Part shown: one piece after another, positions 47,676-64,000 of the stretch
Numbering within the stretch: position 1 is the stretch's first letter
Layout of the letters: each line of letters begins with the position of its first letter
IMG/VR virus record: IMGVR_UViG_3300021399_000002
Coordinates: 118,656 to 182,655 of that record
Length of the DNA stretch: 64,000 nt
Direction: 5' to 3' (one strand)
Origin: a virus
Taxonomy: Duplodnaviria > Caudoviricetes
Translations under genes and position numbers: made by a program
The notes under the pieces: model-generated
Told to the model about the DNA's origin: nothing
The model's input: only the letters and a program-made list of their open reading frames with translations
Database searches by the model: none

Positions 47676-47704
47676 TTGACAATGTGCTTGTATGGTGCTA
47701 TATT
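47676..47704 (+). promoter_or_regulatory. sigmaA promoter of first GC-rich gene
   Basis: TTGACA-17 bp-(TG)TATATT; no dyad operator. Confidence 0.65.
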
Positions 47705-48968: not shown

Positions 48969-49062
48969 GCCACCAATTATTTAGGTGTCGACACCTAAAT
49001 CGAACGATTGAAACGGCATTGAGATTATGGTATAATAGGGTATCAAATGAAGGGGGAACGGA

Positions 49063-49266
49063 TTGATGGAATGGTTGCTTGGAGTCGCAGGTGGACTGAT
49101 ACTTTGCGGGCTGGCGTTTGGTTGTGTGCTTTGCAATATGTGGATTGCAGTCATAACAGCTGCGGCTGGAATCATAATAGCTGGAGCTGGAAGCTGCTAC
49201 CAAAAAGCACAAGCTGAAGCTGCTAAGCATGAGCGCTTATCTCAATATCCTTCATATAAATATTAA
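49063..49266 (+). CDS. Small membrane protein (2 TM)
   Basis: Cassette gene, hydrophobic; followed by AAGCGC-TTCG-GCGCTT hairpin. Confidence 0.7.
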   Translation: MMEWLLGVAGGLILCGLAFGCVLCNMWIAVITAAAGIIIAGAGSCYQKAQAEAAKHERLSQYPSYKY

Positions 49267-49372
49267 GCGCTTCGGCGCTTGTGCATATTTAGGTGTCTTA
49301 CACCTAAATTTTCCCCTTGACATTATACATATCTTCTTATATAATGGTATCATCAAATAAGGGAGGTACGAA

Positions 49373-49546
49373 ATGATGGCACTGTGGCAGGAATTACTCG
49401 CAAAATGGGAAAAGGAAGAATTGCCGGATGTAGATAATAATCCGTTCAATCCGGACGATGAGCCAGATTGGGACGACGAGGAAAAGGATCCTTTTGATCC
49501 TTCTGGTGAGGATCCTGTCGATTTATTCGGCGTATGGTGGGAATAA
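49373..49546 (+). CDS. 57-aa very acidic protein (not in ORF track)
   Basis: Promoter 49317, SD GGGAGG, MMALWQELLAKWEKEELPDVDNNPFNPDDEPDWDDEEKDPFD...WWE; stop in terminator loop. Confidence 0.75.
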   Translation: MMALWQELLAKWEKEELPDVDNNPFNPDDEPDWDDEEKDPFDPSGEDPVDLFGVWWE

Positions 49547-49652
49547 TTTTCCCATCATATAATTATTTAGGTGTTAAACACTTAAATATATTGCTTGACT
49601 TATACTTCTCAAACATGTATAATTAAGGCATCAAATGAGGGAGGTACTTACC

Positions 49653-49799
49653 ATGTTCTATGTAGTTGATCAGTGGGGCCAATACATTAACGAGTTCAAG
49701 TCTCGGGATGAAGCGGAACAGTTCTGTGAGAAGTGGAACAGCAAGTTCCGCTTCAGTGAATGGACAGCACCGAAGGCGACTGTGATCGAGGCGGAGTAA
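49653..49799 (+). CDS. 48-aa hypothetical protein (not in ORF track)
   Basis: Promoter, SD GGGAGG, MFYVVDQWGQYINEFKSRDEAEQFC...; stop in terminator loop. Confidence 0.75.
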   Translation: MFYVVDQWGQYINEFKSRDEAEQFCEKWNSKFRFSEWTAPKATVIEAE

Positions 49800-49916
49800 T
49801 CCGCCTTTAGTTTATTTAGGTGTTAATCACCTAAATATATGGATTGACATATATATACATATAGTGTATACTATACTTGTCCGAAGGGACAATACATAAA
49901 GAAAGAGGTAAGTACC

Positions 49917-50285
49917 ATGAAGAACAGCACTCTGATTAAACTCATCACTATCATTTGTACTTGTATCTTTGCAATCTTTGCATGTTTTCCGGTAGAAGCT
50001 GAACGAGAAGCTGCACAGGAAAAAGCTGAGCTGGAACATGGTAAGCTGTATCCAAAGCTTACGGTAGTAGTTGAGTCGATCAAAATAGATGATCTATGGC
50101 TTGTCTCTTGCCGCGACAGAGAGGATAATGTGTGGGCTTTTTGGGATGATGAAGGAAAATGGGATTATGGTGATATCGCCAATCTTCTTATGTGGGGTCT
50201 TGAAGAAGACGAGATTATTGAAGTATATTGGGAAGGATATACAGAGAATATATCACTATTCTTTCAGATCACGGAAGGGCGCTAA
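49917..50285 (+). CDS. Membrane-anchored/secreted hypothetical protein
   Basis: N-terminal signal/TM; cassette gene. Confidence 0.75.
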   Translation: MKNSTLIKLITIICTCIFAIFACFPVEAEREAAQEKAELEHGKLYPKLTVVVESIKIDDLWLVSCRDREDNVWAFWDDEGKWDYGDIANLLMWGLEEDEIIEVYWEGYTENISLFFQITEGR

Positions 50286-50412
50286 TGCGCTTTCTTTCCA
50301 ATTTAGGTGTTAAATACTTAAATAAAAGAGTTGCAATTTCATTTTTGTTTTGGTATAATTCTATCAGAAACAGGGAAGAACACAACTTCCCAAAACGAAG
50401 GAGGATTTACCA

Positions 50413-50703
50413 ATGATTACAGCACAGGAAGCAAAAAAGAATGTTGAACTTTATGAAGTTACCATTTTTCAGAAGACTCTTGAGCGTGTTATGACTCAAT
50501 TAGAAAATATTAGTACCATTATCGAATTTCATTCTAAAAATGGAAAAAGGCAAATTGTCTTTACTCCTTATGATAAATCCCATTTCCCTTCCTCTGAAAT
50601 GTTAGATATGGCCCATAAAATTTTCGATGAAATTTTAAAACGAAATGGTTATGATGTAATCGAAAATGACTATCAGAAAAATTTCCTAAAAGTCCAGTGG
50701 TAG
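50413..50703 (+). CDS. Hypothetical protein ending in TAG (stop in terminator loop)
   Basis: SD GGAGG; MITAQEAKK start; TAG lies in loop of AAGTCCAGTG/CACTGGGCTT stem. Confidence 0.75.
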   Translation: MITAQEAKKNVELYEVTIFQKTLERVMTQLENISTIIEFHSKNGKRQIVFTPYDKSHFPSSEMLDMAHKIFDEILKRNGYDVIENDYQKNFLKVQW

Positions 50704-50829
50704 CACTGGGCTTATTTCATTTTCAAATTTAGGTGTCAAACACTTAAAAATTTCTCTTGCATAATTCCCAATTCTATGATACAATTTCATTGTCCAAAGG
50801 GGACAAAGAAAAGAAAGGGGAATTTCAAA

Positions 50830-50997
50830 ATGAAAACCTATTACTGGATGCACAAAGAATATGGACATCTTGTTCCCGAAACCGAACTATATAAAGACGC
50901 GGACGAATTGGGTTATGATGATATAACAGACCCTTGCTCTGTTGAATATGGAAACTTTTCCCTTTACTACGAAAAGACATCGATTGTAGTAAAATAA
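50830..50997 (+). CDS. Small hypothetical protein
   Basis: Cassette gene; start MKTYYW after SD AAGGGG. Confidence 0.7.
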   Translation: MKTYYWMHKEYGHLVPETELYKDADELGYDDITDPCSVEYGNFSLYYEKTSIVVK

Positions 50998-51137
50998 TCC
51001 CGAAACTGGCATTCGCGCCAGTTTCATTTTCAAATTTAGGTGTTAGACACATAAATTTATCTATTGCATAATTCCCATATCTATGAGATAATACTATTGT
51101 CCAAAAGGACAATTTGAAAATGAAAAGGAGAAAACAC

Positions 51138-51320
51138 ATGAAAATTATTCTTAAATATCAGGCACCCGAAACCCAGATTGACGCTTACAAGTTTTCTGCT
51201 GTTTATGATGAAACCGAAATCTCCGAAGCGGTTGAAGAACTACAGGCCGCAAGAAAATATGGATATGAAATCACAATGTGGACACTTGTTCATGAAGAGG
51301 ACGTGGAACGCGCCCTCTAA
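51138..51320 (+). CDS. Small hypothetical protein
   Basis: Cassette gene; SD AAGGAG. Confidence 0.7.
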   Translation: MKIILKYQAPETQIDAYKFSAVYDETEISEAVEELQAARKYGYEITMWTLVHEEDVERAL

Positions 51321-51419
51321 TTTCCTTCTCAAATTTAAGTGTTAAACACCTAACTTTTCCTCTTGAATCTCATATCATTCTATGCTATAATAAGGCATCA
51401 AATGAAGGAGGCGCTAACC

Positions 51420-51728
51420 ATGATTAACATTCGGACGATTCGCAAATTGCAGGAAAATGACGGACTCACTCTGAAAGCCGGGAAAATCATTACCTATAAA
51501 TCCGGTTGGCAGGTTGCTGACTATGGTTACGAGCTGGCCACAGCTGAGGAAGCTATCGCCTGCGTCCGCAAGCTGGGCGGTAACTGCGGCATCTGGTACG
51601 CCGGTGGCATCTACTATATTGATCATTCTTTCCGAATCAGCACAAAACGGGAAGCATTAGAAATTGGCCGCAAGTTTTCCCAAATTTCAATTTTTGGATG
51701 GAAAACACAGAAACTTGCCTATTGCTAA
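51420..51728 (+). CDS. Hypothetical protein
   Basis: Cassette gene; SD AAGGAGG; G.W...G.YY.D...QISIF pattern seen in phage proteins. Confidence 0.75.
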   Translation: MINIRTIRKLQENDGLTLKAGKIITYKSGWQVADYGYELATAEEAIACVRKLGGNCGIWYAGGIYYIDHSFRISTKREALEIGRKFSQISIFGWKTQKLAYC

Positions 51729-51855
51729 ACACCGCGCCCGAAATTGGGCGCAATTTCATTTTAAAATATTTAGGTGTTTGACACATAAATATATATCTTG
51801 ATATTTCCGAAAATGTATGTTAAAATTAGGTATCAAATGAAGGAGGTCGGGTAGC

Positions 51856-52038
51856 ATGGCGATGGTCAATCTTGTATGGTACAAAACAGAAGACGGACAG
51901 TGGGCATTATGGGGTGTATATTCTAATCTCGATGCTGCTTGTACTGCGTTCGACCGCATTCTTAAAGAAGGGTACGGAGTCGAAGCGAGAATTAATAGCG
52001 AGCATGTAAACGATGGAACCAATCCTGACTGGTGGTAA
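51856..52038 (+). CDS. Small hypothetical protein
   Basis: Cassette gene; SD AGGAGG. Confidence 0.7.
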   Translation: MAMVNLVWYKTEDGQWALWGVYSNLDAACTAFDRILKEGYGVEARINSEHVNDGTNPDWW

Positions 52039-52181
52039 TCATAAGTAGGCGCAAGCCTACTTTATTTTATTTTAGATTACTTATGTGTTAAACACCTAAA
52101 TATTACTCTTGTAATTTTCCCATAATTATGTTATTATATACTTGTCCCAAGGGACAATAAAAATAGAAAAGGGGAAACATT

Positions 52182-52340
52182 ATGAATACTATTTCTTATA
52201 CCTATCGGACCGAGCGTATTGATACCCGCAATTTCCATGGGTGGATTGTCTTTGAATGCGTTGACGGATACGAAGAGGAAATTTTTTCCAGTATCTCACT
52301 TAACGAGGTAAAGGCATTCATGCGCGATCTCGGCGCATGA
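52182..52340 (+). CDS. 52-aa hypothetical protein (not in ORF track)
   Basis: Cassette gene; SD AAGGGG; MNTISYTYRTERIDTRNFHGWIVF... Confidence 0.7.
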   Translation: MNTISYTYRTERIDTRNFHGWIVFECVDGYEEEIFSSISLNEVKAFMRDLGA

Positions 52341-52458
52341 TACCTTTATATTTAGGTGTCATACACCTAAATCAAATCTTGACAAATCAATATAAAAAAT
52401 GTTATAATTCCTTTGGAACCAAGGAACAAAGGATAAAAGAAAGAGAGGAACAAAGAAC

Positions 52459-52698
52459 ATGAAAACCACAGTGAGAGCAACCGTTATTATCCCCGATTCC
52501 TATGTAACAATCCAGCGCCTTTATGATGATGGTGTATCTTTTAGACTGGAAAAGGAAGTCAAGACGGGACATGAGGCCGCTAATTTTATTGATAGGTTGT
52601 GTGCGGCTGGCGGGAAAATGGTTGATGTGCATGAGTTTATTGATGATGATGATTTCAAGAATAAACTTTGTGCGCGGTTTGAGTATATTTCAGAATAA
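52459..52698 (+). CDS. Small hypothetical protein
   Basis: Cassette gene; SD GAGGA. Confidence 0.7.
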   Translation: MKTTVRATVIIPDSYVTIQRLYDDGVSFRLEKEVKTGHEAANFIDRLCAAGGKMVDVHEFIDDDDFKNKLCARFEYISE

Positions 52699-52834
52699 GG
52701 CCCACAGGCCTTATTTTGTTTCATTTCAGATTTAGGTGTTAAACACCTAACTATTACTCTTGACTTCTACTCCCATTTCTGTTAATATATACTTGTCCGA
52801 AGGGGACAGAGATAAGAAAGAGAGGAATTGAACA

Positions 52835-53077
52835 GTGAAGAAGTACATGGCGGTCAGACTGACTATTTGCGAAGGCACCTCTATCCATGGTGCCCACCTC
52901 TATTATTCCGATGAGGAGCTGGGGCTGGAAATTTCTACCAAGCTGTCTTATAATGATGGCATGAAACAGCTTCGTAAGCTGGAAAAGCTCCTGGGCAAAA
53001 CCGCAACAATGACGATCAATCAGTTTGATCGGAGCATTGCTTACAAGGAACTGTACGGATTCTTCGGCCGGGAGTAA
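52835..53077 (+). CDS. Small hypothetical protein (GTG start)
   Basis: Cassette gene; stop in terminator loop. Confidence 0.7.
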   Translation: MKKYMAVRLTICEGTSIHGAHLYYSDEELGLEISTKLSYNDGMKQLRKLEKLLGKTATMTINQFDRSIAYKELYGFFGRE

Positions 53078-53203
53078 TCCCGGTTTTCTTATTTATTTAG
53101 GTGTTAAACACCTAAATATACCCATTGACATATAATATAGATTGTGATAATATATAATTGTTCCAAGGGGAACGAAATAAAAGAAAGAGTGAGGTAAAAG
53201 AAC

Positions 53204-53491
53204 ATGGCACGGTATCTGTACAGCAAGGTGGTCGCAGGACATGAGTACGCACAGGCGCAGGAAAACTTTTTCGATGACGGCACAGTGCAGCTGCAAAGCT
53301 ACAGCACAATCGTTATTGAGATTAGCCCGGACGGCTGGCTCTCTTGCACGGGCACCTATAGTATGACCACGATTAAGCACATCGGTTGGTTCATGCGGGC
53401 AAGGGGCATGTCCTATCAGCTGGCAAAGCTCATGTATCTTGAGCACAAGGAATTCAACATCAACACTGGCGAGTGCCGGAACCGGGGCTAA
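53204..53491 (+). CDS. Phage hypothetical protein (LQSYxT..YSxTTxKH family)
   Basis: Cassette gene; recognisable widespread phage motif. Confidence 0.75.
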   Translation: MARYLYSKVVAGHEYAQAQENFFDDGTVQLQSYSTIVIEISPDGWLSCTGTYSMTTIKHIGWFMRARGMSYQLAKLMYLEHKEFNINTGECRNRG

Positions 53492-53600
53492 TGCCCCGGT
53501 TTTATTTTATTCTAATTTAGGTGTTAAACACCTAATTCTACCTCTTGAGATTTCTCATAGAGTATGATATACTATAATCACTCCAAAGGGAGTAGAAAGG

Positions 53601-53849
53601 ATGGAAACCATCATGAATAAGCTTTTTGTGAACCTGACCATTGTTAACTACAGCGATAACGGATATCTCCGCTGTGAGCTTCGTACCATCATTGATGGCG
53701 GTGATGTAATCACTTACAAGCTGGAGCCCTCTGCTGCGATGGAGCTGATGTGGGAGCTGAAACGCCTCGGCGGCAAGAAGCAGATGTATGTCAACCAGTA
53801 CAATCCTTACATCAACTATCGGGAAGTTGACCTTTGGCTTAAAAAGTAA
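53601..53849 (+). CDS. Small hypothetical protein
   Basis: Cassette gene. Confidence 0.7.
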   Translation: METIMNKLFVNLTIVNYSDNGYLRCELRTIIDGGDVITYKLEPSAAMELMWELKRLGGKKQMYVNQYNPYINYREVDLWLKK

Positions 53850-53975
53850 GAATAGGGGAGATTCCTCCCCCTATTTTATTTAGGTGTTAAACACCTAAGT
53901 TTACTTATTGACTTTATATATGTAATATGATAGTATACTATTGTACCAAAGAGGTACAGAAAGAGAGGAAAGAAT

Positions 53976-54206
53976 ATGAGAATCGGAAGGACTATCATTG
54001 ATACGGACAACATGAGCATCGAGGATATGGATGTCATCATCAAGGAATTGCGCGCAATTCGTGCACGCAAGGCAAAGGCGGAAGAACTGAAAACCCGTAT
54101 GGCCGAACTGATCGCCGAAGCAAAGGAACACGGTTTCACCTTTATTGATAAGGATTTCGGACAGGTATGGATGGGTGACGATGTAGAACTCTATGATGAA
54201 CGGTAA
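53976..54206 (+). CDS. Small coiled-coil hypothetical protein
   Basis: Cassette gene; SD GAGGA. Confidence 0.7.
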   Translation: MRIGRTIIDTDNMSIEDMDVIIKELRAIRARKAKAEELKTRMAELIAEAKEHGFTFIDKDFGQVWMGDDVELYDER

Positions 54207-54338
54207 TTCCAATTAGCGCCAATTGGCGCTTTAACTTATTTAGGTGTTAAACACCTAAAACCGTCTCTTGACTTTCTATTATAATATGCTATAATGATAT
54301 TGTCCTCAAAGAGAGGAACACGAAAGGAGATTGAAACC

Positions 54339-54578
54339 ATGTACATGTTCTATGCCGATCGCACTGGTTGGATTCCCATGGGAAACGATGGACAGTTGGT
54401 TGTTCCGAAGAGCATCAAGTCTCGCCGTGCCCTGCTGAAGCTGGCTGAAAGCTTCCTGGGTAAAAGAGCTGGCAGGGTGTATCTAATGAACAGCTGGACA
54501 CAAGCCATGAGCGAGCTGGGGCCTCGTGCCTTTGAAGAGTATATCGCACGCAACGGAGAGGTTGTGATGTATAAATGA
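54339..54578 (+). CDS. Small hypothetical protein
   Basis: Cassette gene; SD AAGGAG. Confidence 0.7.
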   Translation: MYMFYADRTGWIPMGNDGQLVVPKSIKSRRALLKLAESFLGKRAGRVYLMNSWTQAMSELGPRAFEEYIARNGEVVMYK

Positions 54579-54731
54579 TTATCTGTTTTGAATTATCTCG
54601 TCCACCGCCCTTCGGTGACCGCCAAAGGCGGTTATTCTATTTCGGTATTTAAGTGTTAAACACCTAAAAATATGCGTTGACTTCTATCCCGTAATATGAT
54701 ATTATAATGGTGTCGAAAGGAGGAAGGGTAG

Positions 54732-54866
54732 ATGATTCCACCGGGTTAGACTTCCCAAGGTTACGGGTTGGTACCGGACTGGCGGGATTCATACTTGTCG
54801 CAACCAACTGCCGTCAACCTGCCGCGGCGAAGCAGATTGATGAAATTGAGCCAAGTAGCGGACTGA
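54732..54866 (+). CDS. Candidate 44-aa read-through microgene (MIPPG-TAG-TSQG...), or ncRNA
   Basis: SD AGGAGG 8 nt before ATG; TAG at codon 6; next stop TGA lies in the cassette terminator loop. Confidence 0.45.
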
Positions 54867-55070
54867 TCACCCGCTATTTTTTACACTGTCATTTAGGTGT
54901 TAAACACTTAATTTTATTACTTGCTTTTTAATATAAATTATGGTAATATAATCTTGCGGAAAGGAAGAGGGACTTCAATCCGAAGTGAGCAACCCCATGG
55001 ACTAACCCACCAAGCCCTCAAAGGCCACGAGGATGGAGTTGTGTAGCTCAAATAAAATATATTGGAGGAT

Positions 55071-55310
55071 ATGTTCATGACCATGATGATTGAAAAGAAG
55101 CTGAGAGATTTTAATTTCTGGGGCGGAGCTGCTACAAATGCCGCAAAATTAACTTATGATGAGTTAGACCAGCTGGAAGATATCTATGAAAGCAACGATC
55201 CTGATTATACCCCCACTGTATCTGAAATCAATGATGATATGTGGTTCGGCTTTGAAGCAATTTGTGAATGGTTGGGACTTGATTATGAGGAAGTGATGGC
55301 AAGGAAGTAA
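55071..55310 (+). CDS. Acidic phage hypothetical protein (FxFWGGA..EINDxxWF..EWLG family)
   Basis: SD GGAGG; stop in terminator loop. Confidence 0.75.
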   Translation: MFMTMMIEKKLRDFNFWGGAATNAAKLTYDELDQLEDIYESNDPDYTPTVSEINDDMWFGFEAICEWLGLDYEEVMARK

Positions 55311-55426
55311 TTCCTTGCCCTATTTTTAATTTAGGTGTTTAACACCTAACTTTAGTCATTGACTTCTACCCTAACTTATGGTATATTATACTTGTTCCAA
55401 GGGGAACAGAAAGGAAGGAAACGAAG

Positions 55427-55651
55427 ATGATTAAGATCACGAAGTCTCACGCACGCACGCTGTATAATGCCGGAAAGGAAATCATGATTTTGCCCAACAA
55501 GATGAGGACAGATTCCTTTATGGCAAGCTGGACGACCAAACCTGAAAATGACCCCAGCGCCGATTTTGACAAGCTGTGTAATGCTATTTCTTATTACAAC
55601 TGCTCCCCCGAGACTGGTATGGGGCTGGCCTACTATGTAAAGGAGATGTAA
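55427..55651 (+). CDS. Small hypothetical protein
   Basis: Cassette gene; YYNC..ETG signature. Confidence 0.7.
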   Translation: MIKITKSHARTLYNAGKEIMILPNKMRTDSFMASWTTKPENDPSADFDKLCNAISYYNCSPETGMGLAYYVKEM

Positions 55652-55654
55652 GCT

Positions 55655-55846
55655 ATGAACGAGCTGCATGAGAAGCTGATTGACGCTGCCGAAACGGCAT
55701 ATAACCAGATAAAGGAAATCATTGAAGATCATCACTGTCCCATCGAAGACTGTTTTCCCGCTGCCATTGGACGCTGTGTTATTATTGACGGGACTATCTA
55801 TCAGATGTATGTAGATATCACCGTGAAAAAGGTAACCGGGGTATAA
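55655..55846 (+). CDS. Small hypothetical protein
   Basis: Second gene of cassette; SD AAGGAG; stop in terminator loop. Confidence 0.7.
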   Translation: MNELHEKLIDAAETAYNQIKEIIEDHHCPIEDCFPAAIGRCVIIDGTIYQMYVDITVKKVTGV

Positions 55847-56065
55847 CCCCGGTTTATTTCATAATAGAATTTAAGTGTTAAACACCTAATTTTCTTTATT
55901 GACTATAATCCTATAATATGGTATGATATCAGTGTTGAAGGACGGGTTCAAGAGCATGAACCTTAAAGCAATTAGCAGAACGCAATTGTTTGAAAGTAGC
56001 CACCACGCGCGAGGATATATGAACTGAAGCGAAATTGCCGCCCTTATCTAATTCTGAAGGGAGTA

Positions 56066-56296
56066 ATGAAGATGAATGAACTGTATGTGCTGATGAGAGA
56101 TGACGAACTCGTTGGAGTTTACACTACACATCGAAAGGCTACGCAGGCACTAATTCTTGATACCATGAAAGATGACATGAAACTGAATGACTACCATTTT
56201 GAATTCGGAGTTGAGTTCTTTGATTATATCGGCCCGAAGTCCGGCGGACACTTTGTGTGGGAAATTCAGGAAGTTACACCCGATAATCGGGTGTGA
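56066..56296 (+). CDS. Small hypothetical protein
   Basis: SD GGGAG after long leader. Confidence 0.7.
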   Translation: MKMNELYVLMRDDELVGVYTTHRKATQALILDTMKDDMKLNDYHFEFGVEFFDYIGPKSGGHFVWEIQEVTPDNRV

Positions 56297-56396
56297 TTTC
56301 ACTTTCATCTGATTTAGGTGTTAAACACCTATATCCGAATATTGACTTTCCCATTACTTCATGGTATCATATAACCATGAAAGGGAGGTATTGAAC

Positions 56397-56729
56397 ATGA
56401 AGGAACAGATGACTTACCATGTGGCAGTTCAAAGAGCGGAAAGAGTTAAGCATATTATTGAAGATGTGGGTCTGGGCCAGATTGTCAAAGAGAAGTATAC
56501 TCGATTTAATCTTGACCAAGCTGGACGCTGGATTTGTATAACTGATACTGGTATCACCATTATCAAGGATGAACCCAAGGAAAAAATTATTACCATGTAT
56601 GTTACCACACAAAGGGAGCTGGTAGCTGTCTTTGGTGGAGCAAATAAAGTTCCTGCTTTCCTGCGTAAGAAGGTCGACCATAATCAGAGTAAGTACACTG
56701 AAAGGGGTAAAACGATATGGAGAAGCTGA
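56397..56729 (+). CDS. Hypothetical protein
   Basis: SD GGGAGG; ITDTG..II..IITMY pattern. Confidence 0.7.
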   Translation: MKEQMTYHVAVQRAERVKHIIEDVGLGQIVKEKYTRFNLDQAGRWICITDTGITIIKDEPKEKIITMYVTTQRELVAVFGGANKVPAFLRKKVDHNQSKYTERGKTIWRS

Positions 56730-57007
56730 ATAGATGGGCTGGGAGTAAGAAAAGCTACGCTAACGACAGAAGGCGGCTGAACCGCCTTCTGAAAAAGGCT
56801 GGTATTGTATTTAAATGGGAACCGATATGGGATGGATATAAGTGGACTTTTCCGCAATCTGCCTATCCAAATGGAGATGCAGTTATCCATAATTTTTCCT
56901 ATTGGAATGACTTAGGCTACTTTGAAACTTTGAACATCGGTCCGGAGAAAGAGTGCACTCCGCGTACCGCACGGGAACTCGTAGAATTACTCCGTCCAAC
57001 GGAGTAA
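56717..57007 (+). CDS. Hypothetical protein
   Basis: Overlaps previous gene; H..SY...G..ET pattern. Confidence 0.7.
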   Translation: MEKLNRWAGSKKSYANDRRRLNRLLKKAGIVFKWEPIWDGYKWTFPQSAYPNGDAVIHNFSYWNDLGYFETLNIGPEKECTPRTARELVELLRPTE

Positions 57008-57090
57008 TTATAATTTAGGTGTTAAACACCTAATTTTATTATTTGACTTTCGTATAATTTTATTATATAATGCTAATGTAAGGAGGGGAT

Positions 57091-57246
57091 ATGATGAGTA
57101 AGAAGAAAAACCCAAAACAAAAAACATGGGTTGAAGTTTTCCAGTCTGAACGCAAGGAATTTCCGCAAGGATATTGCGTTACTCGCATTATCCCCGACAA
57201 GCGCAATAAGAAACCGAAGCACAAGGAAAGGGAGCTGGAAGAATGA
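57091..57246 (+). CDS. 51-aa basic protein (not in ORF track)
   Basis: SD AGGAGG; MMSKKKNPKQKTW...TRIIPDKRNKKPKHKERELEE. Confidence 0.7.
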   Translation: MMSKKKNPKQKTWVEVFQSERKEFPQGYCVTRIIPDKRNKKPKHKERELEE

Positions 57247-57407
57247 GACCTTATCATATTTATCAAATCACAAGAGATGATAAAATTCTCTATGCTTGTT
57301 TTCGGACAAAAGAAGCCGCTGAAATGGCTTTAGAAACATTAAAGCGCAGAGAAAAACAATATCCTAAGTGGCTTCGAGCAATATATACTTTGGAGGAAGT
57401 ACGATGA
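57243..57407 (+). CDS. 54-aa hypothetical protein (not in ORF track)
   Basis: ATGA overlaps on both sides. Confidence 0.65.
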   Translation: MRPYHIYQITRDDKILYACFRTKEAAEMALETLKRREKQYPKWLRAIYTLEEVR

Positions 57408-57565
57408 AATATAAATGGGTAATCATGCAGGAACTTGAAGATACCGATTGCGCGAATCCTTATTTGATTGTAGATACGGAAGAGCGCGCCGAAGAACTAT
57501 GCTACAAGTTGGAATCCGAAAATCCGGGCTTTATCTTCTGGTCATATATGTGCGGAGAGGAATAA
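57404..57565 (+). CDS. Small hypothetical protein
   Basis: SD GGAGG; stop in terminator loop. Confidence 0.7.
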   Translation: MKYKWVIMQELEDTDCANPYLIVDTEERAEELCYKLESENPGFIFWSYMCGEE

Positions 57566-57678
57566 TTTCCTCTTCAATAATTTAAGTGTTAAACACCTAA
57601 ACTTATTGTTTGACATTCCCATAATTATATGATAAGATATCATTGTTCCAAGGGGAACACGAAAGGAGATTGAAAGAT

Positions 57679-57825
57679 ATGAATACTCTGTATGCGGTTA
57701 AAAACTTTGGAAAGTATCATTTCTTCAAGACCGAAGCGCTTCGTCAGGCGTATCTGGATACCCTCTCTGAGTGGGAGCTGAAATACTGTGAATCCTATGA
57801 AGTGCGTTATGGAAAGGTGGCATAA
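57679..57825 (+). CDS. Small hypothetical protein
   Basis: SD AAGGAG. Confidence 0.65.
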   Translation: MNTLYAVKNFGKYHFFKTEALRQAYLDTLSEWELKYCESYEVRYGKVA

Positions 57826-57828
57826 GCT

Positions 57829-58032
57829 ATGACTACTCGTACTTATTATCTGCCGAAGAATCGTATTGCGATTCATGTTATCAATCACATCGTAAGCAAA
57901 GTTGGTTGTAGCATTGGCGAGCTGAAAGTAAACCGCCAGACCGATACCATTCGTGTTCCCGTAAGCTGTAATGATGTAGATGTTGCTAAAATTGAGCGCA
58001 TCCTTAAAATCTATGATATGATAGAGGAGTAA
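57829..58032 (+). CDS. Small hypothetical protein
   Basis: ORF track; SD AAGGTGG. Confidence 0.65.
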   Translation: MTTRTYYLPKNRIAIHVINHIVSKVGCSIGELKVNRQTDTIRVPVSCNDVDVAKIERILKIYDMIEE

Positions 58033-58039
58033 AATACTT

Positions 58040-58174
58040 ATGGATTTAGTAATGATTGTGCTCGCTATTTTGAATTTATGTGGTGTAGTATCCGGTACAA
58101 CAGTTTCTATTTACGGTATTGTATTTGCCGTCATAGTCATGGTTAGTGCTCTTATCCGTGAAATGGAGAAGTAA
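58040..58174 (+). CDS. 44-aa membrane peptide (not in ORF track)
   Basis: SD GAGGAG; hydrophobic; stop in terminator loop. Confidence 0.6.
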   Translation: MDLVMIVLAILNLCGVVSGTTVSIYGIVFAVIVMVSALIREMEK

Positions 58175-58445
58175 TTCTCCATTTCAATCATTTAGGTGTT
58201 AAACACCTAAACTAAGTAATTGACTTTTCATCAAATTTGAGTATAATAATAATTGTTCCGAGGGGAACAAACCTCAGATGAAGGCGCCAAATGTTTGAGA
58301 GGATCCCCAAAGAACAAAAAAATAACAGATTTAATGCTTGACAAAAAGCAAAAAATCTGATATAATATAATCATCCCAAAAGGGAAAACAAAAATTGTGC
58401 AGGGTGGTCTGCCGAAACTAAACCACTGAGAAAAAAGGAGTAAAT

Positions 58446-58934
58446 ATGAATAAGAATGAAATCCTCAACACTATCCTGTCTATCCCCGGTGCGAGCATGG
58501 CTCGTCAGAACAAGACCAATTTTGTGGTTATCCCTGCTGATGACGGTATCATCAAGGTGAGTGTTGGTACGGCTTTGTCCATTGACACCAAGGCTCACAA
58601 GGCTTTCAACGCCGAAGCTGCGATTGCTGAATATAAGGCTTGGGAAGCTGAAGCTGCCCTTCGTGAAGCCGAAAAGGCTACCAAGCCTGTGAAGGTTAAG
58701 GGGCCGAACCCCGAAGCGCAGGCCCGCCGGGACGAACTTGACGCTAAGGTTTCTGCTCTGCCCGCTTTCACCGAGTATACCGCTACCGATATTCTGAACG
58801 CTCTTGCCGGACAGGTTGCCGAGAATGTCACTGTTATGGCGGTCGGTCAGAGCGCCAAGCGCCTTGTGGAAAAGGGTGTCCTCACGGTTGGCAATCGTGA
58901 AGGCGACAAGAAGTCCTACTACACCAAGGCTTAA
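58446..58934 (+). CDS. Protein with C-terminal winged-helix DNA-binding domain
   Basis: YTATDIL..TVMAVGQSAKRLVEKGVL...KKSYY wHTH pattern; tandem promoters; strong codon bias. Confidence 0.75.
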   Translation: MNKNEILNTILSIPGASMARQNKTNFVVIPADDGIIKVSVGTALSIDTKAHKAFNAEAAIAEYKAWEAEAALREAEKATKPVKVKGPNPEAQARRDELDAKVSALPAFTEYTATDILNALAGQVAENVTVMAVGQSAKRLVEKGVLTVGNREGDKKSYYTKA

Positions 58935-59084
58935 TCCCAAAATCAAAACTCCCCTTCCACCGGAAGGGGAGTAATTTTATTTTCATTTATTTAGGTGTTA
59001 AACACCTAATTTTATGAATTGACTTTTCCTTTAACTTCTGTTATACTAAACATGCTCAAGAGAGAGCGGAAGGAGTGAACGGAA

Positions 59085-59543
59085 ATGGAAATGAAAAGAA
59101 CTATCTTCTTTGATATGGATAATACTATTGCCGCCTTATATGATGTACCTAATTGGCTCCCGAAACTGCGAGCATATGACCCCTCGCCTTATGCCGAAGC
59201 CGAAGTCATGCTGAACATGAACCTGCTCGCCCGGTATCTGAATAAGCTCCAGAAAATGGGTTATCGTATTGGCATTATTAGCTGGTTGTCTAAATGCTCG
59301 AATACTCAATATGATGAAGCTGTGACTAAAGCCAAGCGTGAATGGCTAAAAGTACATCTTCACTCTGTGACTTTTGACCTTATCCATATTACACCCTATG
59401 GAGTGCCTAAAGAATTCTGGATGACTAATACTGATGACATTCTGTTCGATGATAACGAAGAAATTCGTAACGATTGGAATGGTGAAGCGTATGAGCCGAC
59501 AGAAATCTTCTCCGTTCTTTCCTCTCTCATCAAAGGGGAGTAA
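59085..59543 (+). CDS. HAD-superfamily phosphatase (5'(3')-deoxyribonucleotidase-like)
   Basis: FFDMDNTIA (DxD), K..WL, LFDD motifs. Confidence 0.8.
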   Translation: MEMKRTIFFDMDNTIAALYDVPNWLPKLRAYDPSPYAEAEVMLNMNLLARYLNKLQKMGYRIGIISWLSKCSNTQYDEAVTKAKREWLKVHLHSVTFDLIHITPYGVPKEFWMTNTDDILFDDNEEIRNDWNGEAYEPTEIFSVLSSLIKGE

Positions 59544-59619
59544 TCCCCTTTTGATATGTTAGGTGTTTAACACCTAAACTTAATACTTGATTTTTGTTAA
59601 AATTATGTTATAATATAAT

Positions 59620-59847
59620 TGTTCTTAGGAACAGCAGACATTCTTGCCCATACAGCAGTCTGGTCTTAGTGTTTTAAGAACTAAGGCGGTTTCCGATAGG
59701 AGCTTCCGCTGAATAAATGAAAAAGGCATTATTGACTCTTCGCCGGGGTGGACAGGCTTGTTCGGAAAAGGAGAACTAAAACTGGAGCCATCATAAAGGG
59801 TGTGTATGTTGCCTTTATGGAAATTGGATTTTATTATATCCAATTTC
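59620..59847 (+). ncRNA. Candidate structured non-coding RNA cassette
   Basis: Own operator and promoter, several hairpins, no SD-led ORF, terminal hairpin before next operator. Confidence 0.4.
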
Positions 59848-59977
59848 ATTTTCCTACTTTAAGTGTTAAACACCTAAATGTAGGTATTGCTTTTTTCCTA
59901 ATATGTGATATACTATCATTGTTCCGAGGGAAGAACGGAACAAGAAATAAAAACGAAAAAGAGAGAGGAAAAAGAAA

Positions 59978-60958
59978 ATGAAAGTATCTGAAACGATGAC
60001 CATTACCAAGCGGAGTTCTGACGGAGCGTTCTACGGCGAAAAGAACAATACCCCTTATATCATTGAGCCGACCCATAGTGAATATAATGCCTATGACGGT
60101 TTCTACAATGTCATGCGTGCTACCGCATACGCTGACCGTCCGGCTCTGTTCAATGAGATTCTGAACACGAATCGGTATCCTACTATTTTTGACACTGTTT
60201 CTACTCAGGCTGAGGAAGTGCCCCAGATGAGCGCTAAGGAAATTCTCGTCCGTGGGATTAAGAATCTGATGAATTTCTTTACGGAATTCAGTTTCACTCC
60301 TTCCTTCCGCTTTACCAATACCTTTGCTTTTATGGCTTGCCGGGGACAGCAGCAGGCAACTGAGTATGTCAATAACTACTTTGCTCTGATGGATTCTTCC
60401 TATGTGAAGGAAGTCCAGCAGAAAGTAAAGAGTCCTGAGTTTAAACAGATTATCAAAGACATTGCTCAGTATGGTGAGCCTACTTCCCATATCAATACCC
60501 GGTTTAAGGTTTACTACGGCCCGGCCGGAACTGGTAAGACTACGATTGCGCAGGAAGAAAGCGAGAACCGTTGTATTGTATGTAATTCTTCTATGTTGCC
60601 GTCTGATTTGATGGAAGATTTTATCTTCAAAGATGGCAATCCGGATTTTAATCCTTCTCTTCTGTGGGATTGTATGGAACAGGGCAAGACTATTGTTCTC
60701 GATGAAATCAATCTTCTTCCCTTTGATTCTCTGCGTTTCCTTCAGGGTATTGTTGACGGTAAGAGTGAATTTTACTACAAGAACCGTCCTGTCCATATTC
60801 ATGAAGGATTCCAGATTATCGGAACAATGAACCTCTCTCTTGGCGGTATGATTTACGGATTGCCCGAACCGTTGGTCGACCGTTGCTCTGATGCCAAAGA
60901 ATTTGCCTTGACTGCCGAGCAGTTGACCAAGGCGATTGTCGGGTGGGATGGGGAGTAA
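59978..60958 (+). CDS. MoxR/CobS-like AAA+ ATPase
   Basis: Walker A GPAGTGKT, Walker B VLDEIN, GTMN sensor, LVDR arginine finger. Confidence 0.85.
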   Translation: MKVSETMTITKRSSDGAFYGEKNNTPYIIEPTHSEYNAYDGFYNVMRATAYADRPALFNEILNTNRYPTIFDTVSTQAEEVPQMSAKEILVRGIKNLMNFFTEFSFTPSFRFTNTFAFMACRGQQQATEYVNNYFALMDSSYVKEVQQKVKSPEFKQIIKDIAQYGEPTSHINTRFKVYYGPAGTGKTTIAQEESENRCIVCNSSMLPSDLMEDFIFKDGNPDFNPSLLWDCMEQGKTIVLDEINLLPFDSLRFLQGIVDGKSEFYYKNRPVHIHEGFQIIGTMNLSLGGMIYGLPEPLVDRCSDAKEFALTAEQLTKAIVGWDGE

Positions 60959-61077
60959 TCCCCATTCTTTTTTCATTTTCATTATTAGGTGTTTAACACT
61001 TAAATATAAAAATTGACTTTTTCCTAAAACTTTGATATACTATCATTGTTCCAAGAGAGGGGAACAGAAAGTGAGGA

Positions 61078-62631
61078 ATGAAAATGGAACTGAGTTTTGC
61101 CAAGTGTGAATCTATCGTGAATACTCTGCCTATTGGTTTTTATACTGGTAGGAGAGTTGGTATAAAGATTGATAAGGAAGCGCCGACCTCTTACTATGAC
61201 CCTATGGAAGATAATATCGTCATTTCTTATCCGATTATTGCTCAGCGGTTGAGCAGTGTCAAGGATAATTCTGTCACTGAGGAAGAAGCGGTTCGGTCTA
61301 TGACCTATCATGAAGTTTCTCATGCGATTCTTACTCCTGCCGAAAATCTGACCAATACTTTTCAGTTGAATTGTATGGAAGATGAGCGCATTGAAACCGT
61401 ACTTCGCAACTATTTTCATGGCGTGAATTTCCGCAAGCAGTTGTATGACTTGTATGGTGGTGTCCCTCCTCGGGCAACTGATGCTAAATCTGCTTTTTTC
61501 AATGCCGTTAGGTTCGGGCTTGGTACTGGTAAGGTACAGTCAGAAGTAAATCGAATTATTAAGACATATGCTTCTATCAATCGGTCTACTGACCGTTGGG
61601 ATTCGAAAATCAACGCCGGAAGCTATGAAGAAGAAGTTAATAGATTGTATGATCTGGTTCGTAGAGAGTTTCGTTCATCCCCGGAAGAGTTTCAGCCCCA
61701 GACGGGAAACGGCAATAATCAGGAACCGAAAAATATGGATGAACTGAAACAGAATCAGAAGAATAGTAAATCTTCCAATACGGCGAAAGATGATTCTGAA
61801 TCTGAAATGAAGCAGAATAAAACCGATGGCGATTCAGAATTTGAAAATAAATCTGACTCTCAGGAAACTGAACCGCACGAATGTCCTTTTTCCCCGGAAC
61901 AGGTACAGCGTATGGTTGGTGCTTCTCTTGGCAAGAATTCTGGGTTGAATGATGAACAGGCCATGAAGTTGGATGATTTTCAGAAAACTGTTGAAATGAT
62001 TATTGGCAACTTCAATAAGAAGAACAAGGGCGGTAGCGGAATCAACGCCTACTCCGGCGTGTTCAATCCTCGTGCCGTTGCTCGCAAAGACTATCGGTAT
62101 TTTGAACGGGCTATGACTACTCAGGGCAACAATAAATTCGGTACTTGCCATTTGAATCTGATTATTGATTGCTCCGGCAGTTATTACTATAATGTGGATA
62201 TCACTAATGGAATCCTTGCGGTTCTGTCAGAAATCGAGCGTAAGAATAGAAACTTCTCTATGGATGTCGCTTTTATCAATCATGAGTTTCATCTGTGCCA
62301 GTCCGTGAGTGAACGGAAAATGAAGGCTTCCGGCGGTAATAGTATCCCGGACGATATGAAAGAAATTCTGATGAAACTCCAGAAACCGCAGACTTGTAAT
62401 TACAATATCATCCTGTTTGATGGTGATGCTTGTTGTAATAATATGTATAATCGAGATTCTGTTAAGGCTTTCAGCGTATTCGATATGAAACAGACTACAC
62501 TTATCACTGACCCCGACAATGAACAGTACATGAAACCGCCTTTTACTTCTACTAAGGTTGTGGTGACTAAGAATTATACGAACGAACTGATTGATCATAT
62601 TATCCATGCTCTGACGATTGCTTTCGGATAA
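61078..62631 (+). CDS. CobT-like protein: N-terminal HExxH metallopeptidase-like domain + C-terminal VWA domain
   Basis: YHEVSHAIL, EDERIE, MIDAS IIDCSGS, GGN, LFDGD; adjacent to AAA+ ATPase. Confidence 0.85.
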   Translation: MKMELSFAKCESIVNTLPIGFYTGRRVGIKIDKEAPTSYYDPMEDNIVISYPIIAQRLSSVKDNSVTEEEAVRSMTYHEVSHAILTPAENLTNTFQLNCMEDERIETVLRNYFHGVNFRKQLYDLYGGVPPRATDAKSAFFNAVRFGLGTGKVQSEVNRIIKTYASINRSTDRWDSKINAGSYEEEVNRLYDLVRREFRSSPEEFQPQTGNGNNQEPKNMDELKQNQKNSKSSNTAKDDSESEMKQNKTDGDSEFENKSDSQETEPHECPFSPEQVQRMVGASLGKNSGLNDEQAMKLDDFQKTVEMIIGNFNKKNKGGSGINAYSGVFNPRAVARKDYRYFERAMTTQGNNKFGTCHLNLIIDCSGSYYYNVDITNGILAVLSEIERKNRNFSMDVAFINHEFHLCQSVSERKMKASGGNSIPDDMKEILMKLQKPQTCNYNIILFDGDACCNNMYNRDSVKAFSVFDMKQTTLITDPDNEQYMKPPFTSTKVVVTKNYTNELIDHIIHALTIAFG

Positions 62632-62782
62632 GAATTAGGGGAGTTAGTCTCCCCTAATTTCATTTTAGAATAGTTTAGGTGTTGAACACCTAAATTCATC
62701 GTTGACAATCCTTATACTGTATGATATACTATCTATGAAATCAGGGAAGGAACAACCCTCTAAAACCAAAAGGAGAAATGTA

Positions 62783-63541
62783 TTGTCTGATTACGCACTG
62801 ATTCTGGATACTGAAACCACTGGTCTGGATAAGCCGTTTTGCTATGATTGTTCATGGGTTATCATGCGGAAATCCGATGGGCAACTGATTGACTTTAAGG
62901 CGAATGTGGTTGAACAAGTTTGGCACAACCTGCCCCTGTTTGAATCTGCGTACTATAAGGAAAAGCGGCAAAAGTATGTACAGATGATGCGGAAGCGTGA
63001 AGCCGTTATGGATAAATGGGGCTATGTCATGCGGAAATTGAAGCAGGATATTATCAATTATGATATTGAAGAAGTATATGCTTACAATTCCGATTTTGAC
63101 GATAAAGTGATTGCCTATAATTGCGACTGGTTCAAATGTAATAATCCCCTTGAAAATGTGGCCGTATATGATATTTGGGGATACGCAAGTGAGTTTATTA
63201 CGGGCGATTCGGACTATCAGAGTTTTTGCGAAACATTCAAGCGGTTTACGGATAGCGGAAACTATAAAGGTAGTGCCGAAGTTGTTTATCAGTTTCTGAA
63301 TAACAACCCTGAGTTTATTGAAGAGCATATGGGTTTGTTCGATTCTGAAATTGAAGCAAGTATCCTTTATGAATGTGTCAACCGTGGTGCTGAATGGGCA
63401 ACAGATTATAAAGTAAATAAGATTCTTCCCCGGATTGCCCTTCACCCTTTCATTATCAAGGTTGACGGTAAAGAAGTATACAAGGGCGAATATATCAAGA
63501 AATATAACCGCTCTGATGTATACAGTTTCAAGACGAAATAA
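62783..63541 (+). CDS. DEDDh 3'-5' exonuclease (DnaQ-like), TTG start
   Basis: ILDTETTG, AYNSDFD, EEHMGLFDS motifs; SD AGGAG 7 nt before TTG. Confidence 0.85.
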   Translation: MSDYALILDTETTGLDKPFCYDCSWVIMRKSDGQLIDFKANVVEQVWHNLPLFESAYYKEKRQKYVQMMRKREAVMDKWGYVMRKLKQDIINYDIEEVYAYNSDFDDKVIAYNCDWFKCNNPLENVAVYDIWGYASEFITGDSDYQSFCETFKRFTDSGNYKGSAEVVYQFLNNNPEFIEEHMGLFDSEIEASILYECVNRGAEWATDYKVNKILPRIALHPFIIKVDGKEVYKGEYIKKYNRSDVYSFKTK

Positions 63542-63691
63542 GAAGGTGGGACAGAAATGTCCCACCCTTCGCCCAACCATATTTAGGTGTCCAACACCTA
63601 ACTTTATTGATTGACTTTTATTAAAATCTGAGTATAATAATAATTGTCAAAAGGACAAGGAAAAGTCCTAAAAACCAGAAAGGATACCGCT

Positions 63692-64000
63692 ATGAAGAAA
63701 GCGTCTATGGAAACCCTCGTTAACTATATCGACAGCCACAATCTGACCGATCTGTTCTCCATCAAGGATGAATTGACTGCCGAACTGTCCAAAGGCAAGG
63801 CGAAAGCCGATGCTAACCGTGCCCTGTATGATGAGTACCATGATAAGGTGATCGAAGCTCTGAGCAAGGCTTCTGCTCCCGTGAGCGCACAGGAGATTGC
63901 GGACGAGACCGGGATTGCCCGTGGTAAGATTGTGTATGGTCTGACTAACTACTGGAAATCCGAAGTTGTTCGGGATGATTCCGGTAAGACCGCCATCTAC
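63692..64000 (+). CDS. Winged-helix DNA-binding protein (3'-truncated by window end)
   Basis: MKKASMETL...VIEALSKASAPVSAQEIADETGIARGKIVYGL...; cassette with operator 63583. Confidence 0.7.
   Translation, partial: MKKASMETLVNYIDSHNLTDLFSIKDELTAELSKGKAKADANRALYDEYHDKVIEALSKASAPVSAQEIADETGIARGKIVYGLTNYWKSEVVRDDSGKTAIY

Follow-up and report, generated by a model that had tools for sequence, protein, structure and literature searches.

Organization of the locus

The DNA analysed here (the window) comprises the last 64 kb of the complete 182,655-bp virus record IMGVR_UViG_3300021399_000002, which has a 127-bp terminal repeat. Our subject is an array of small genes at the end of this stretch, in which one 19-bp palindrome (the dyad) recurs in front of promoters of the sigmaA type. 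Positions refer to the window unless they are given as genome positions. The source is an uncultured gut phage of ~183 kb that has recoded TAG as a sense codon: open reading frames (ORFs) of at least 150 amino acids (aa) cover 75 kb when the standard code is used and 138 kb when TAG is read through. The genome consists of three blocks, namely the plus-strand array, which runs from genome position 166.2 kb across the record junction to 6.2 kb, a block of plus-strand genes from 6.2 to 129 kb, and a minus-strand block from 129 to 166 kb that includes the gene of a 5012-aa tape-measure protein. The G+C content of the array is 41%, versus 33-35% in the other blocks. Most of the array proteins have no family match in Pfam or PHROGs; an AAA_5 ATPase gene (59978-60958) lies among them.

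A search with the pattern TTAGGTGT-N3-ACACCTAA, allowing for at most two mismatches, yielded 29 copies of the dyad in the window, all between 49289 and 63601, where shuffled sequences lead one to expect 0.02. A script added a 30th copy with a 2-bp centre at 48981, and the remainder of the window has none. The count of 30 given in the original prediction, a reading of this DNA made without database searches, was thereby confirmed. The scan of the whole phage that the prediction had proposed as a check brought the total to 38, all of them intergenic and all inside a single array of ~21 kb that crosses the record end into genome 192-6205; the other ~160 kb of the genome contains zero dyads.

Reading and scanning of the sequence gave units that are all built alike. 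The preceding gene ends in front of a T-rich tail, on which follow the dyad and, after 9 bp, a promoter; its leader is short and leads, via a strong Shine-Dalgarno sequence, into one to three small genes. The TAA stop of the previous gene often lies inside the loop of a GC-rich terminator, and 49 terminator-like sites were found versus 11 expected. All 30 window modules possess a near-consensus promoter of the sigmaA type with an extended -10 box (consensus TTGACt-16/17-TGnTATAAT). The gap between dyad and -35 box is 9 bp in 28 of them and 8 bp in the other two, in agreement with the 8-9 bp that had been claimed; 26 of the 9-bp gaps were counted by script and those at 50729 and 54893 were read from the sequence by eye. 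If transcription starts ~7 nt past the -10 box, the centre of the dyad would be located near position -54. The prediction had also described a homologous spacer of ~100 bp. Such a conserved spacer exists, with the correction that it begins exactly at the dyad, and dyad, promoter and leader together form a module of about 80-100 bp that is repeated 38 times.

The phasing holds on both strands, as the dyad at genome position 5562 lies 9 bp upstream of a minus-strand promoter. Two further copies have another arrangement: the one at genome position 4772 is promoterless and lies between convergent terminators, and the one at genome position 192 is located 22 bp from its -35 box. The promoter at the latter site (L044:192-260) belongs to a conserved 113-aa gene (genome 310-651) and contains a second, small inverted repeat, TGTATCCAAAATACA, between dyad and -35 box. 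The 22-bp arrangement is kept in a relative (L057:10445-10520), and this promoter may answer to two factors.

A second element of the modules is a hairpin in the leader, which was found in 41% of 238 modules versus 8% of shuffled leaders, and in about two thirds of the modules in the window. It starts 4-7 nt past the -10 box, which nearly coincides with the transcript's 5' end, and its typical form is TTGTTCC-AAGG-GGAACA. The stem covaries (TTGTCC/GGACAA, ACTCC/GGAGT, TTGTACC/GGTACAG) and the length of the loop is variable. Probably, the hairpin is a 5' stabiliser or a protein-binding RNA element. Modules without it have a short leader of the GGCATCAAATGAAGGAGG type.

Conservation and symmetry of the dyad

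Relatives were collected using the exact 19-mer, which occurred in 37 stretches from 14 other IMG/VR contigs. These stretches contain ~300 dyads, 221 of which have a strong promoter at the fixed offset. Within 205 distinct modules of the relatives, the information content is ~1.6-1.8 bits at most positions of the dyad and ~1 bit in the -35 box, and it is ~0 bits in the 9-bp gap, in the 17-bp promoter spacer and in the 60 nt upstream of the dyad. Between phages, the proteins of the cassettes show 35-90% identity, and for several of them the fetched arrays contain no counterpart. No other part of the module is as well conserved as the dyad among the ~20 related phages, in which flanks and genes have diverged; this indicates that the dyad itself is under selection and does not merely accompany a recent duplication.

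The full form of the palindrome is TTAGGTGTT-W-AACACCTAA, often with AT...AT flanks. Its 3-bp centre had been described as free, which turned out to be wrong: it reads T-W-A in most copies (TAA, TTA, TGA or TCA), and the effective arms are 9 bp around a single base. When oriented toward the promoter this central base is A in 114 cases versus T in 31. At arm position 4 the arms vary without compensation, as had been noted before. Among 338 distinct sites of the phage and its relatives, the first G (arm position 4) is changed in one arm in 40 cases and in both arms in 0, and the oppositions A-C, T-C and G-A between the arms all occur in the source phage. The stem of the leader hairpin covaries and the arms of the dyad do not, so the dyad is unlike the RNA element of the same modules. 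Furthermore, the dyad is positioned after the terminators and before the promoters, outside the predicted transcripts. Indirect evidence of this kind supports the view that the dyad acts as a double-stranded DNA site for a sequence-specific factor and not as a hairpin.

Symmetric variants with changes in both arms do exist, lineage-wide: TTAGGTGG/CCACCTAA makes up 7 of the 8 copies in contig 33463_386, and TTAGATGT/ACATCTAA all 23 copies in L060, which is an all-GATGT phage. As proof of a co-evolving reader these variants are weakened by contig 28888_66, in which G or A in one arm is freely combined with C or T in the other, all four pairings being present (13, 12, 7 and 4 copies). Given this mixing, the spreading of a tolerated purine among repeats fits at least as well as a change in specificity.

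An exact search of the dyad in the genomes of 185,579 species returned only two isolated matches, and a literature search with both arm words returned nothing relevant. The operator of the host regulator NiaR (Firmicutes type I) was considered and ruled out. That operator is an inverted repeat of 22 bp, the core of which is TGT-N4-ACA and the arms of which have the form ACACCTGT... (PMC2330245), whereas the core of the dyad is TGT-N3-ACA and its arms have the opposite order.

A marked class of early promoters

A genome-wide scan recovered ~72 strong promoters of the sigmaA type on the plus strand. Those of the array have the dyad. It is lacking from ~40 others of equal quality, located at 6-125 kb, and strong promoters of this type are almost absent from the minus-strand block. 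The promoters at 6486, 47531 (minus strand), 47676 and 58338, which the prediction had listed as lacking the dyad, indeed lack it. The two promoter classes also differ in the code of the genes they serve. The array genes (n=43) have 0 in-frame TAG in 4,522 codons, versus 5-23 per 1,000 codons in the other blocks, so that the genes behind tagged promoters are readable before recoding sets in, and recoded genes lie behind untagged ones. The prediction had proposed a large early regulon for host takeover or anti-defence that is switched by a single regulator: the early type of the genes is borne out by their codon content, they may serve in host takeover or anti-defence, although almost all of their products match no family, and a single regulator may switch them.

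A metatranscriptome run of the source sample yielded a few low-depth contigs on the array, from a library that may contain DNA. In this low-depth run, two contigs (57086-57269 and 58384-58947) start 8-10 nt past predicted starts, and the second one ends at the terminator of its gene, which hints weakly at monocistronic units.

A different element at the same offset in a more distant lineage

More distant arrays (L053, L055 and L056) were fetched via members of a winged-helix protein family that is encoded in the arrays. None of the three contains a GGTGT dyad. Instead, they have a 17-bp element, TTAAYA-N4-TGTAAYA, of which 17 of 27 copies keep a 9-bp gap to the -35 box, and a second type of element, GTATACAGTAT, occurs as well. 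The latter, promoter-linked in this TAACA lineage, is in the source phage a motif of the ~1-kb non-coding region beyond the far end of the array. Whole IMG/VR records of the TAACA lineage gave the same picture: the element is clustered in arrays and GGTGT dyads are absent. A fixed geometry in combination with a lineage-specific word is what one would expect of an operator and its reader, and it is hard to fit to a purely structural or recombinational role. As far as sequences can tell, this argues for a lineage-specific reader of the promoter tag. The TAACA lineage has restricted and conserved array proteins of its own (147 aa, 148 aa and a basic one of 45 aa), none of which belongs to a Pfam family.

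Gain, loss and order of the cassettes

Comparison with the two closest relatives (blastn) revealed that blocks of homology start at most 2 nt from the left edge of a dyad and end 75-105 nt after a dyad. At several sites, one module of our phage aligns to two modules of a relative that flank an extra cassette; for example, 53096-53174 matches both ~3187-3109 and ~2839-2761 of L014. The reverse was found as well: the cassette at 53601 is missing at the corresponding place in L014, which has a 38%-identical copy elsewhere. Gene order is colinear among close relatives, and shared core genes are reordered between the GGTGT and TAACA lineages. These alignments confirm, at the sequence level, the gain and loss of cassettes with breakpoints at the modules, and the core gene order, which differs between lineages, is in line with the proposed shuffling. 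The pattern matches the model of homologous recombination between repeated promoter modules that was put forward for promoter-early stem-loop (PeSL) cassettes (PMC2839356). The joints found in contigs of the DNA runs have sides of 20-35 nt inside conserved modules and are no evidence of excision; probably, these joints come from related phages in the same sample.

Candidates for the reader protein

Pfam and PHROGs searches detected no DNA-binding domain in 20 proteins of the array and its borders. A scan of 140 further proteins recovered an XRE protein (genome 96139-96333) and a weak second XRE match (9420-9635). Apart from that scan, a 124-aa HTH_24/GcrA-like protein (genome 107520-107894; L049:7520-7894) with a weak match to sigma region 4 was found. 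The last one, whose ortholog in the TAACA lineage is 64% identical over the aligned 87 residues, is by its sequence a candidate regulator of middle or late transcription. Most relatives are represented by fragments, and the two XRE proteins and the HTH_24 protein were therefore not discriminated as readers. The DNA-binding candidates number five in total.

The array itself encodes a clear DNA-binding fold. P0003 (106 aa) and P0004 (genome 4123-4452; L044:4123-4452), both noticed when the far end of the array was read, are paralogs with several sub-threshold matches, all of which are to winged-helix families. In the predicted model (predicted local distance difference test score 94) a long helix precedes the winged helix, and residues 43-103 superpose on winged-helix DNA-binding domains with Z scores of 8-8.9 and a root mean square deviation of 1.3-1.8 A. 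These proteins belong to a family of acidic ~110-aa proteins with more than 3,000 clusters, which is present in nearly every array with 1-4 paralogs per phage. Genes of the family sit behind consensus promoters without the dyad that form a class of their own, being A-rich upstream and having ACAAACCAGAAAGG at the end of the leader. Chimeras were observed that join the N-terminus of one type of paralog to the C-terminus of another (e.g. P0018). The subtype of P0003 tracked the dyad in an initial sample, being present in 15 phages with the dyad versus 0 of 3 loci without it. Nevertheless, P0003 was rejected as the reader of the dyad: the same recognition helix is found in the all-GATGT phage L060 and in records G006 and G007, which have no GGTGT dyads. 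A second objection is that both paralogs are acidic (isoelectric points of 5.7 and 4.7).

A better candidate is a basic, single-copy protein of 112 aa (isoelectric point 9.7; mean column identity 78%), the gene of which lies at 56391-56729. It is present in all 15 phages of the GGTGT lineage with adequate coverage, including 5 of 5 positive-control records, and none of 5 non-GGTGT records and none of 3 TAACA loci encodes it. The orthologs in the two phages with symmetric dyad variants have private radical changes at otherwise invariant positions (R47V, A45N, Q75F and G83N in L060; D97A and Q100E in 33463_386), whereas orthologs from phages with the consensus dyad have 0-2 conservative changes. 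The co-occurrence represents one lineage contrast and two variant phages, and L060 is the most divergent sequence anyway. The protein belongs to no Pfam or PHROGs family and has no sequence match to a solved structure. Its predicted fold gives a best Z of 4.5, with five models that disagree, and in the atlas it matches only unnamed viral clusters, the nearest named clusters scoring at chance level. Judged by its distribution and substitutions, the protein is a lead for the reader and only that.

What the dyad may be for

Considering the above, we favour, with a probability of roughly 0.55, the reading that the dyad is the class-specific operator of a lineage-specific and probably two-fold symmetric phage protein, which would turn off or retune the early genes. 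It builds on the sites, their phasing, their selective conservation and their restriction to one promoter class, and further on the early type of the genes and on indels at the modules; the protein itself would have to bind the dyad, be encoded by the phage and act as a repressor. On entry, the host RNA polymerase would fire the ~35 near-consensus tagged promoters unaided, their genes being readable in the standard code. The tag would then be the handle by which the whole immediate-early set is shut off or retuned as a block, while untagged sigmaA promoters stay active. A protein bound at about -65 to -43 could take the place of the C-terminal domains of the polymerase alpha subunits, keep the polymerase held at the promoter, or block read-through from the upstream cassette. 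As a second role, the module would offer the homology by which cassettes enter, leave and change place; with repeated modules, a new gene that lands between two of them joins the regulon at once. Shut-off is favoured over activation because silencing of the early set, while the host sigma factor is still used for a second set, needs a mark in cis. The prediction had proposed a homodimeric protein that reads double-stranded DNA and not an RNA hairpin. The uncompensated arms, position, conservation and class marking support the part on double-stranded DNA, and the single homodimeric regulator may be what reads it.

Several points weigh against an operator for shut-off. A site centred at -54 misses the -35 and -10 boxes, which is unusual for a simple repressor and usual for a class I activator. 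The bias of 114 to 31 in the orientation of the central base means that the site is not strictly symmetric. The lineage-wide arm variants could stem from homogenisation among repeats instead of a change of reader. The search for a reader has yielded no more than a lead, and the winged-helix family, whose DNA-binding fold is the sole clear one among the products of the array, fails as reader. Finally, the RNA run is of low depth and possibly contains DNA.

The position of the dyad is what an alternative builds on that we consider appreciably less probable, namely that the dyad is a positive element, a docking site at ~-54 for an activator or recruitment factor (of the virion, of the host, or a phage-modified polymerase alpha subunit), by which the early cassettes would gain priority over host promoters and the untagged promoters of the phage. 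Class I activators and UP elements act from about this distance, the Ogr sites of P2 (TGT-N12-ACA) are centred near -55, the site is clear of the core promoter, and the 9-bp phasing is fixed even in a lineage with a different element. However, promoters that are already near-consensus with an extended -10 box have no evident need for activation, and equally strong untagged ones exist. In addition, an incoming genome cannot make the activator of its own immediate-early genes, and the paucity of matches among sequenced species argues against a common host factor, if not against a host-specific one. The palindrome could also be kept mainly as the target of a nuclease, resolvase or recombinase, its adjacency to promoters being secondary. 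The edges of the homology blocks, the modules that flank cassette indels and the different core gene order of the lineages would be in line with this, as would the PeSL repeats of T4-type phages, which are known to recombine (PMC2839356). We nevertheless think it unlikely: such a site has no need for a fixed 9 bp to the -35 box, nor for the same distance with another element, and ordinary homologous recombination over a module of 80-100 bp already accounts for the indels. No recombinase was noticed in the scans of array proteins, in which none was specifically sought.

That the palindrome forms a hairpin or cruciform, be it as a terminator, as a site of RNA processing or as a hairpin promoter of the N4 kind that a phage RNA polymerase would use, is suggested by its 8-9 bp stem and short loop, and by a terminator scan that flags a few copies which happen to precede T-rich sequence. 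It is very improbable, considering the 40 one-arm and zero compensating changes at the first G, the A-C and G-A oppositions in this phage, and the covariation that the leader hairpin of the same modules does display. Moreover, separate GC-rich terminators precede the dyad and the promoters follow it, so that it is mostly untranscribed; the element of the distant lineage is at best an imperfect palindrome, and the largest protein of the phage is a tape measure and not a polymerase. Least of all do we expect the dyad to be without function of its own, carried along in a recently duplicated promoter module. Neighbouring modules do share the type of centre (TAA for those of the window, TTA for those at the start of the genome) and the central base has its orientation bias, but this explanation is contradicted by the ~1.6-1.8 bits in the dyad versus ~0 in gap and spacer among phages with proteins that are only 35-90% identical.

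The operator reading can be extended into a more specific and, in our view, speculative scheme of 'address-tagged' early promoters. Each lineage would have its own word at -54 (the GGTGT palindrome here, a TAACA or GTATAC element elsewhere) and a small lineage-specific reader with a new DNA-binding fold, here the 112-aa protein, so that the arrays would constitute a regulon-level analogue of integrons with orthogonal pairs of operator and regulator. If true, an orphan gene dropped between two tags would be enrolled at once in the early regulon. The interest of the locus is broader than this scheme. Large gut phages that reassign TAG must run their early programme in the host code and then hand over to a recoded one, and a tag that splits otherwise identical host-type promoters into two classes provides a testable handle on this early switch (a 23-bp site). 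The same tag marks the points of entry and exit of orphan genes, which links regulation to gene turnover. With different tags at the same position, the clade may offer orthogonal promoter-operator sets for synthetic biology in Gram-positive bacteria.

Inventory of modules and other features of the array

The modules of the window and the associated features are listed in Table 1. Many cassette genes have their TAA stop in the loop of their own terminator (GGAGTAATCC pattern), the stem of which encodes the last residues of the protein; examples are included. The gene at 50413-50703 is the sole array gene that ends in TAG. That TAG sits in the terminator loop, and the frame would continue through the next module once TAG is read as an amino acid. 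The cassette at 59615-59850 has a dyad, promoter, leader hairpin and terminator and no convincing ORF; its product is a candidate small RNA, and nucleotide-level conservation is absent in the two closest relatives.

Table 1. Modules and associated features of the array (window positions)
Feature	Position	Strand	Dyad	Gap (bp)	Promoter and remarks
Promoter at left border	47676-47704	+	none		first plus-strand promoter
Module 1	48981-49036	+	2-bp centre (48981-48998)	9	TTGAAA-17-TGnTATAAT
Module	49289-49345	+	perfect, centre CTT	9	TTGACA-17-TATAAT
Module	49567-49623	+	1 mismatch	9	promoter
Module	49816-49872	+	1 mismatch	9	promoter, 5' leader hairpin
Module	50303-50359	+	2 mismatches	9	promoter
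Module	50729-50785	+	1 mismatch	9	TTGCAT-17-TGnTACAAT (by eye)
Module	51036-51092	+	1 mismatch	9	promoter
Module	51335-51391	+	1 mismatch	9	promoter
Module	51770-51826	+	1 mismatch	9	promoter
Module	52081-52137	+	1 mismatch	9	promoter
Module	52352-52408	+	perfect	8	TTGACA-18-TGnTATAAT
Module	52732-52788	+	perfect	9	promoter
Module	53097-53153	+	perfect	9	promoter; aligns to two L014 modules flanking an extra cassette
Module	53517-53573	+	perfect	9	promoter
Module	53880-53936	+	perfect	9	promoter
Module	54240-54295	+	perfect	9	promoter
Module	54649-54705	+	1 mismatch	9	promoter
Module	54893-54949	+	1 mismatch	9	TTGCTT-17-TGnTAATAT (by eye)
Module	55331-55387	+	perfect, centre TTA	9	promoter
Module	55871-55927	+	1 mismatch	9	promoter
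Module	56314-56370	+	1 mismatch	9	promoter of 112-aa basic protein gene
Module	57015-57071	+	perfect	9	promoter; RNA contig start 57086
Module	57582-57638	+	1 mismatch	9	promoter
Module	58192-58247	+	perfect	9	promoter
Consensus promoter inside array	58338-58366	+	none		drives 162-aa gene 58446-58934; RNA contig 58384-58947
Module	58991-59047	+	perfect	9	promoter
Module	59559-59614	+	perfect, centre TTA	9	promoter; then stretch without convincing ORF
Module	59859-59914	+	1 mismatch	9	promoter of AAA_5 ATPase gene 59978-60958
Module	60985-61041	+	1 mismatch	9	promoter
Module	62675-62730	+	perfect	8	promoter
Module	63583-63638	+	perfect, centre CCA	9	promoter of winged-helix gene
Leader hairpin	49872-49895				example
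Leader hairpin	53153-53180				example
Leader hairpin	55387-55410				example
Stop in terminator loop	49788-49807				example (others exist)
Stop in terminator loop	53066-53085				example
Stop in terminator loop	55298-55319				example
Stop in terminator loop	60945-60968				example
Basic 112-aa protein gene	56391-56729	+			candidate dyad reader
P0003 gene (106 aa)	63692-64000	+			long helix and winged-helix domain; last 3 codons beyond window

At the left border of the array, a contig of the RNA library exactly spans a GC-rich intergenic stretch between a 200-aa and a 104-aa gene (48362-48576). This stretch has no match in Rfam, and an Rfam search of the array gave no match either. A 14-bp palindrome, TTAGTCATGACTAA, is present in two copies at the start of the array (48908-48921 and 48952-48965) and nowhere else in the genome; each copy adjoins either a ATTATTTAGGTGT half-site or the dyad with the 2-bp centre. 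Just past the far end of the array (L044:6230-7260, genome) lies a non-coding region of ~1 kb that contains numerous AAGCTGGA repeats as well as GTATACAGTATAC motifs and a TTGTCAAGTACTTGACA palindrome and that could be a replication origin or packaging region. In the minus-strand block, the tape-measure protein (18062-33100) has a PhageMin_Tail domain and a choline-binding repeat near its C-terminus, and an adjoining gene encodes a 1941-aa protein with a Hint module.

Comparison with known systems

Searches of the literature and of deposited phage genomes uncovered no description of cassettes with a phased palindrome, and neither P0003 nor a 3.7-kb piece of the array has a match in the deposited phage genomes. 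Nevertheless, several systems share part of the layout. Promoters of the N4 type are DNA hairpins read by a virion RNA polymerase, with a start ~10 nt downstream. Here, by contrast, the arms are uncompensated, a conserved sigmaA promoter follows 9 bp downstream and the 5012-aa protein is a tape measure; the RNA contigs, weak data as they are, start after the -10 box and not beside the dyad. The late promoters that respond to Ogr/Delta in P2/P4 have a dyad, TGT-N12-ACA, near -55. They are four in number, have a poor -35 box and need their activator. The likeness is that a dyad near -55, shared by a set of promoters, marks one temporal class; the difference is that the set described here has ~35 members that are near-consensus and early.

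The original prediction had drawn a comparison with integrons, in which promoterless cassettes are read from one Pc promoter and variable attC sites are recombined as folded single strands by an integrase. The analogy holds for the ordered array of small, unrelated single-gene units, with repeated sites where units come and go. It does not extend to the cassettes as such, since each unit here has its own promoter and terminator and the sites are conserved in sequence. The 30 proteins of the array or its borders that were scanned included no integrase, in a scan that was not aimed at that family.

The stoperators of cluster A mycobacteriophages (L5 gp71 type) are asymmetric 13-mers that are bound by a monomer, have an orientation-dependent effect on elongation and serve in temperate immunity (PMC9283540). 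As in our phage, where all 38 copies are intergenic, a short site is present in more than 20 copies in intergenic spaces and at promoters, and variants of the site define the specificities of lineages; those of the mycobacteriophages are read by one phage repressor over many transcription units. The dyad differs in being a 19-bp palindrome that is locked to the -35 box and of which only the central base is biased in orientation, and nothing points to a temperate phage.

The closest known system, by its repeated early promoter modules, orphan genes and breakpoints in the modules, is that of the PeSL cassettes of T4-type phages (Arbiol et al. 2010, PMC2839356; Comeau et al. 2014, PMC4122927), which the original prediction had named, together with the SPO1 host-takeover module, among the nearest precedents. 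Both systems have repeated, composite intergenic modules with a strong early promoter of the host type (here in 30 of 30 window modules), in both the modules flank small orphan genes in a variable region, and in both the insertions, deletions and replacements between relatives break within the modules. The conserved partner of the promoter is different. In PeSL it is a GC-rich terminator stem-loop with an AT-rich region, whereas here the terminators are separate and unconserved (~0 bits) and the partner is a phased 19-bp palindrome that does not behave like a hairpin, in another group of phages, with promoters of the Firmicute type and a TAG-recoded genome.

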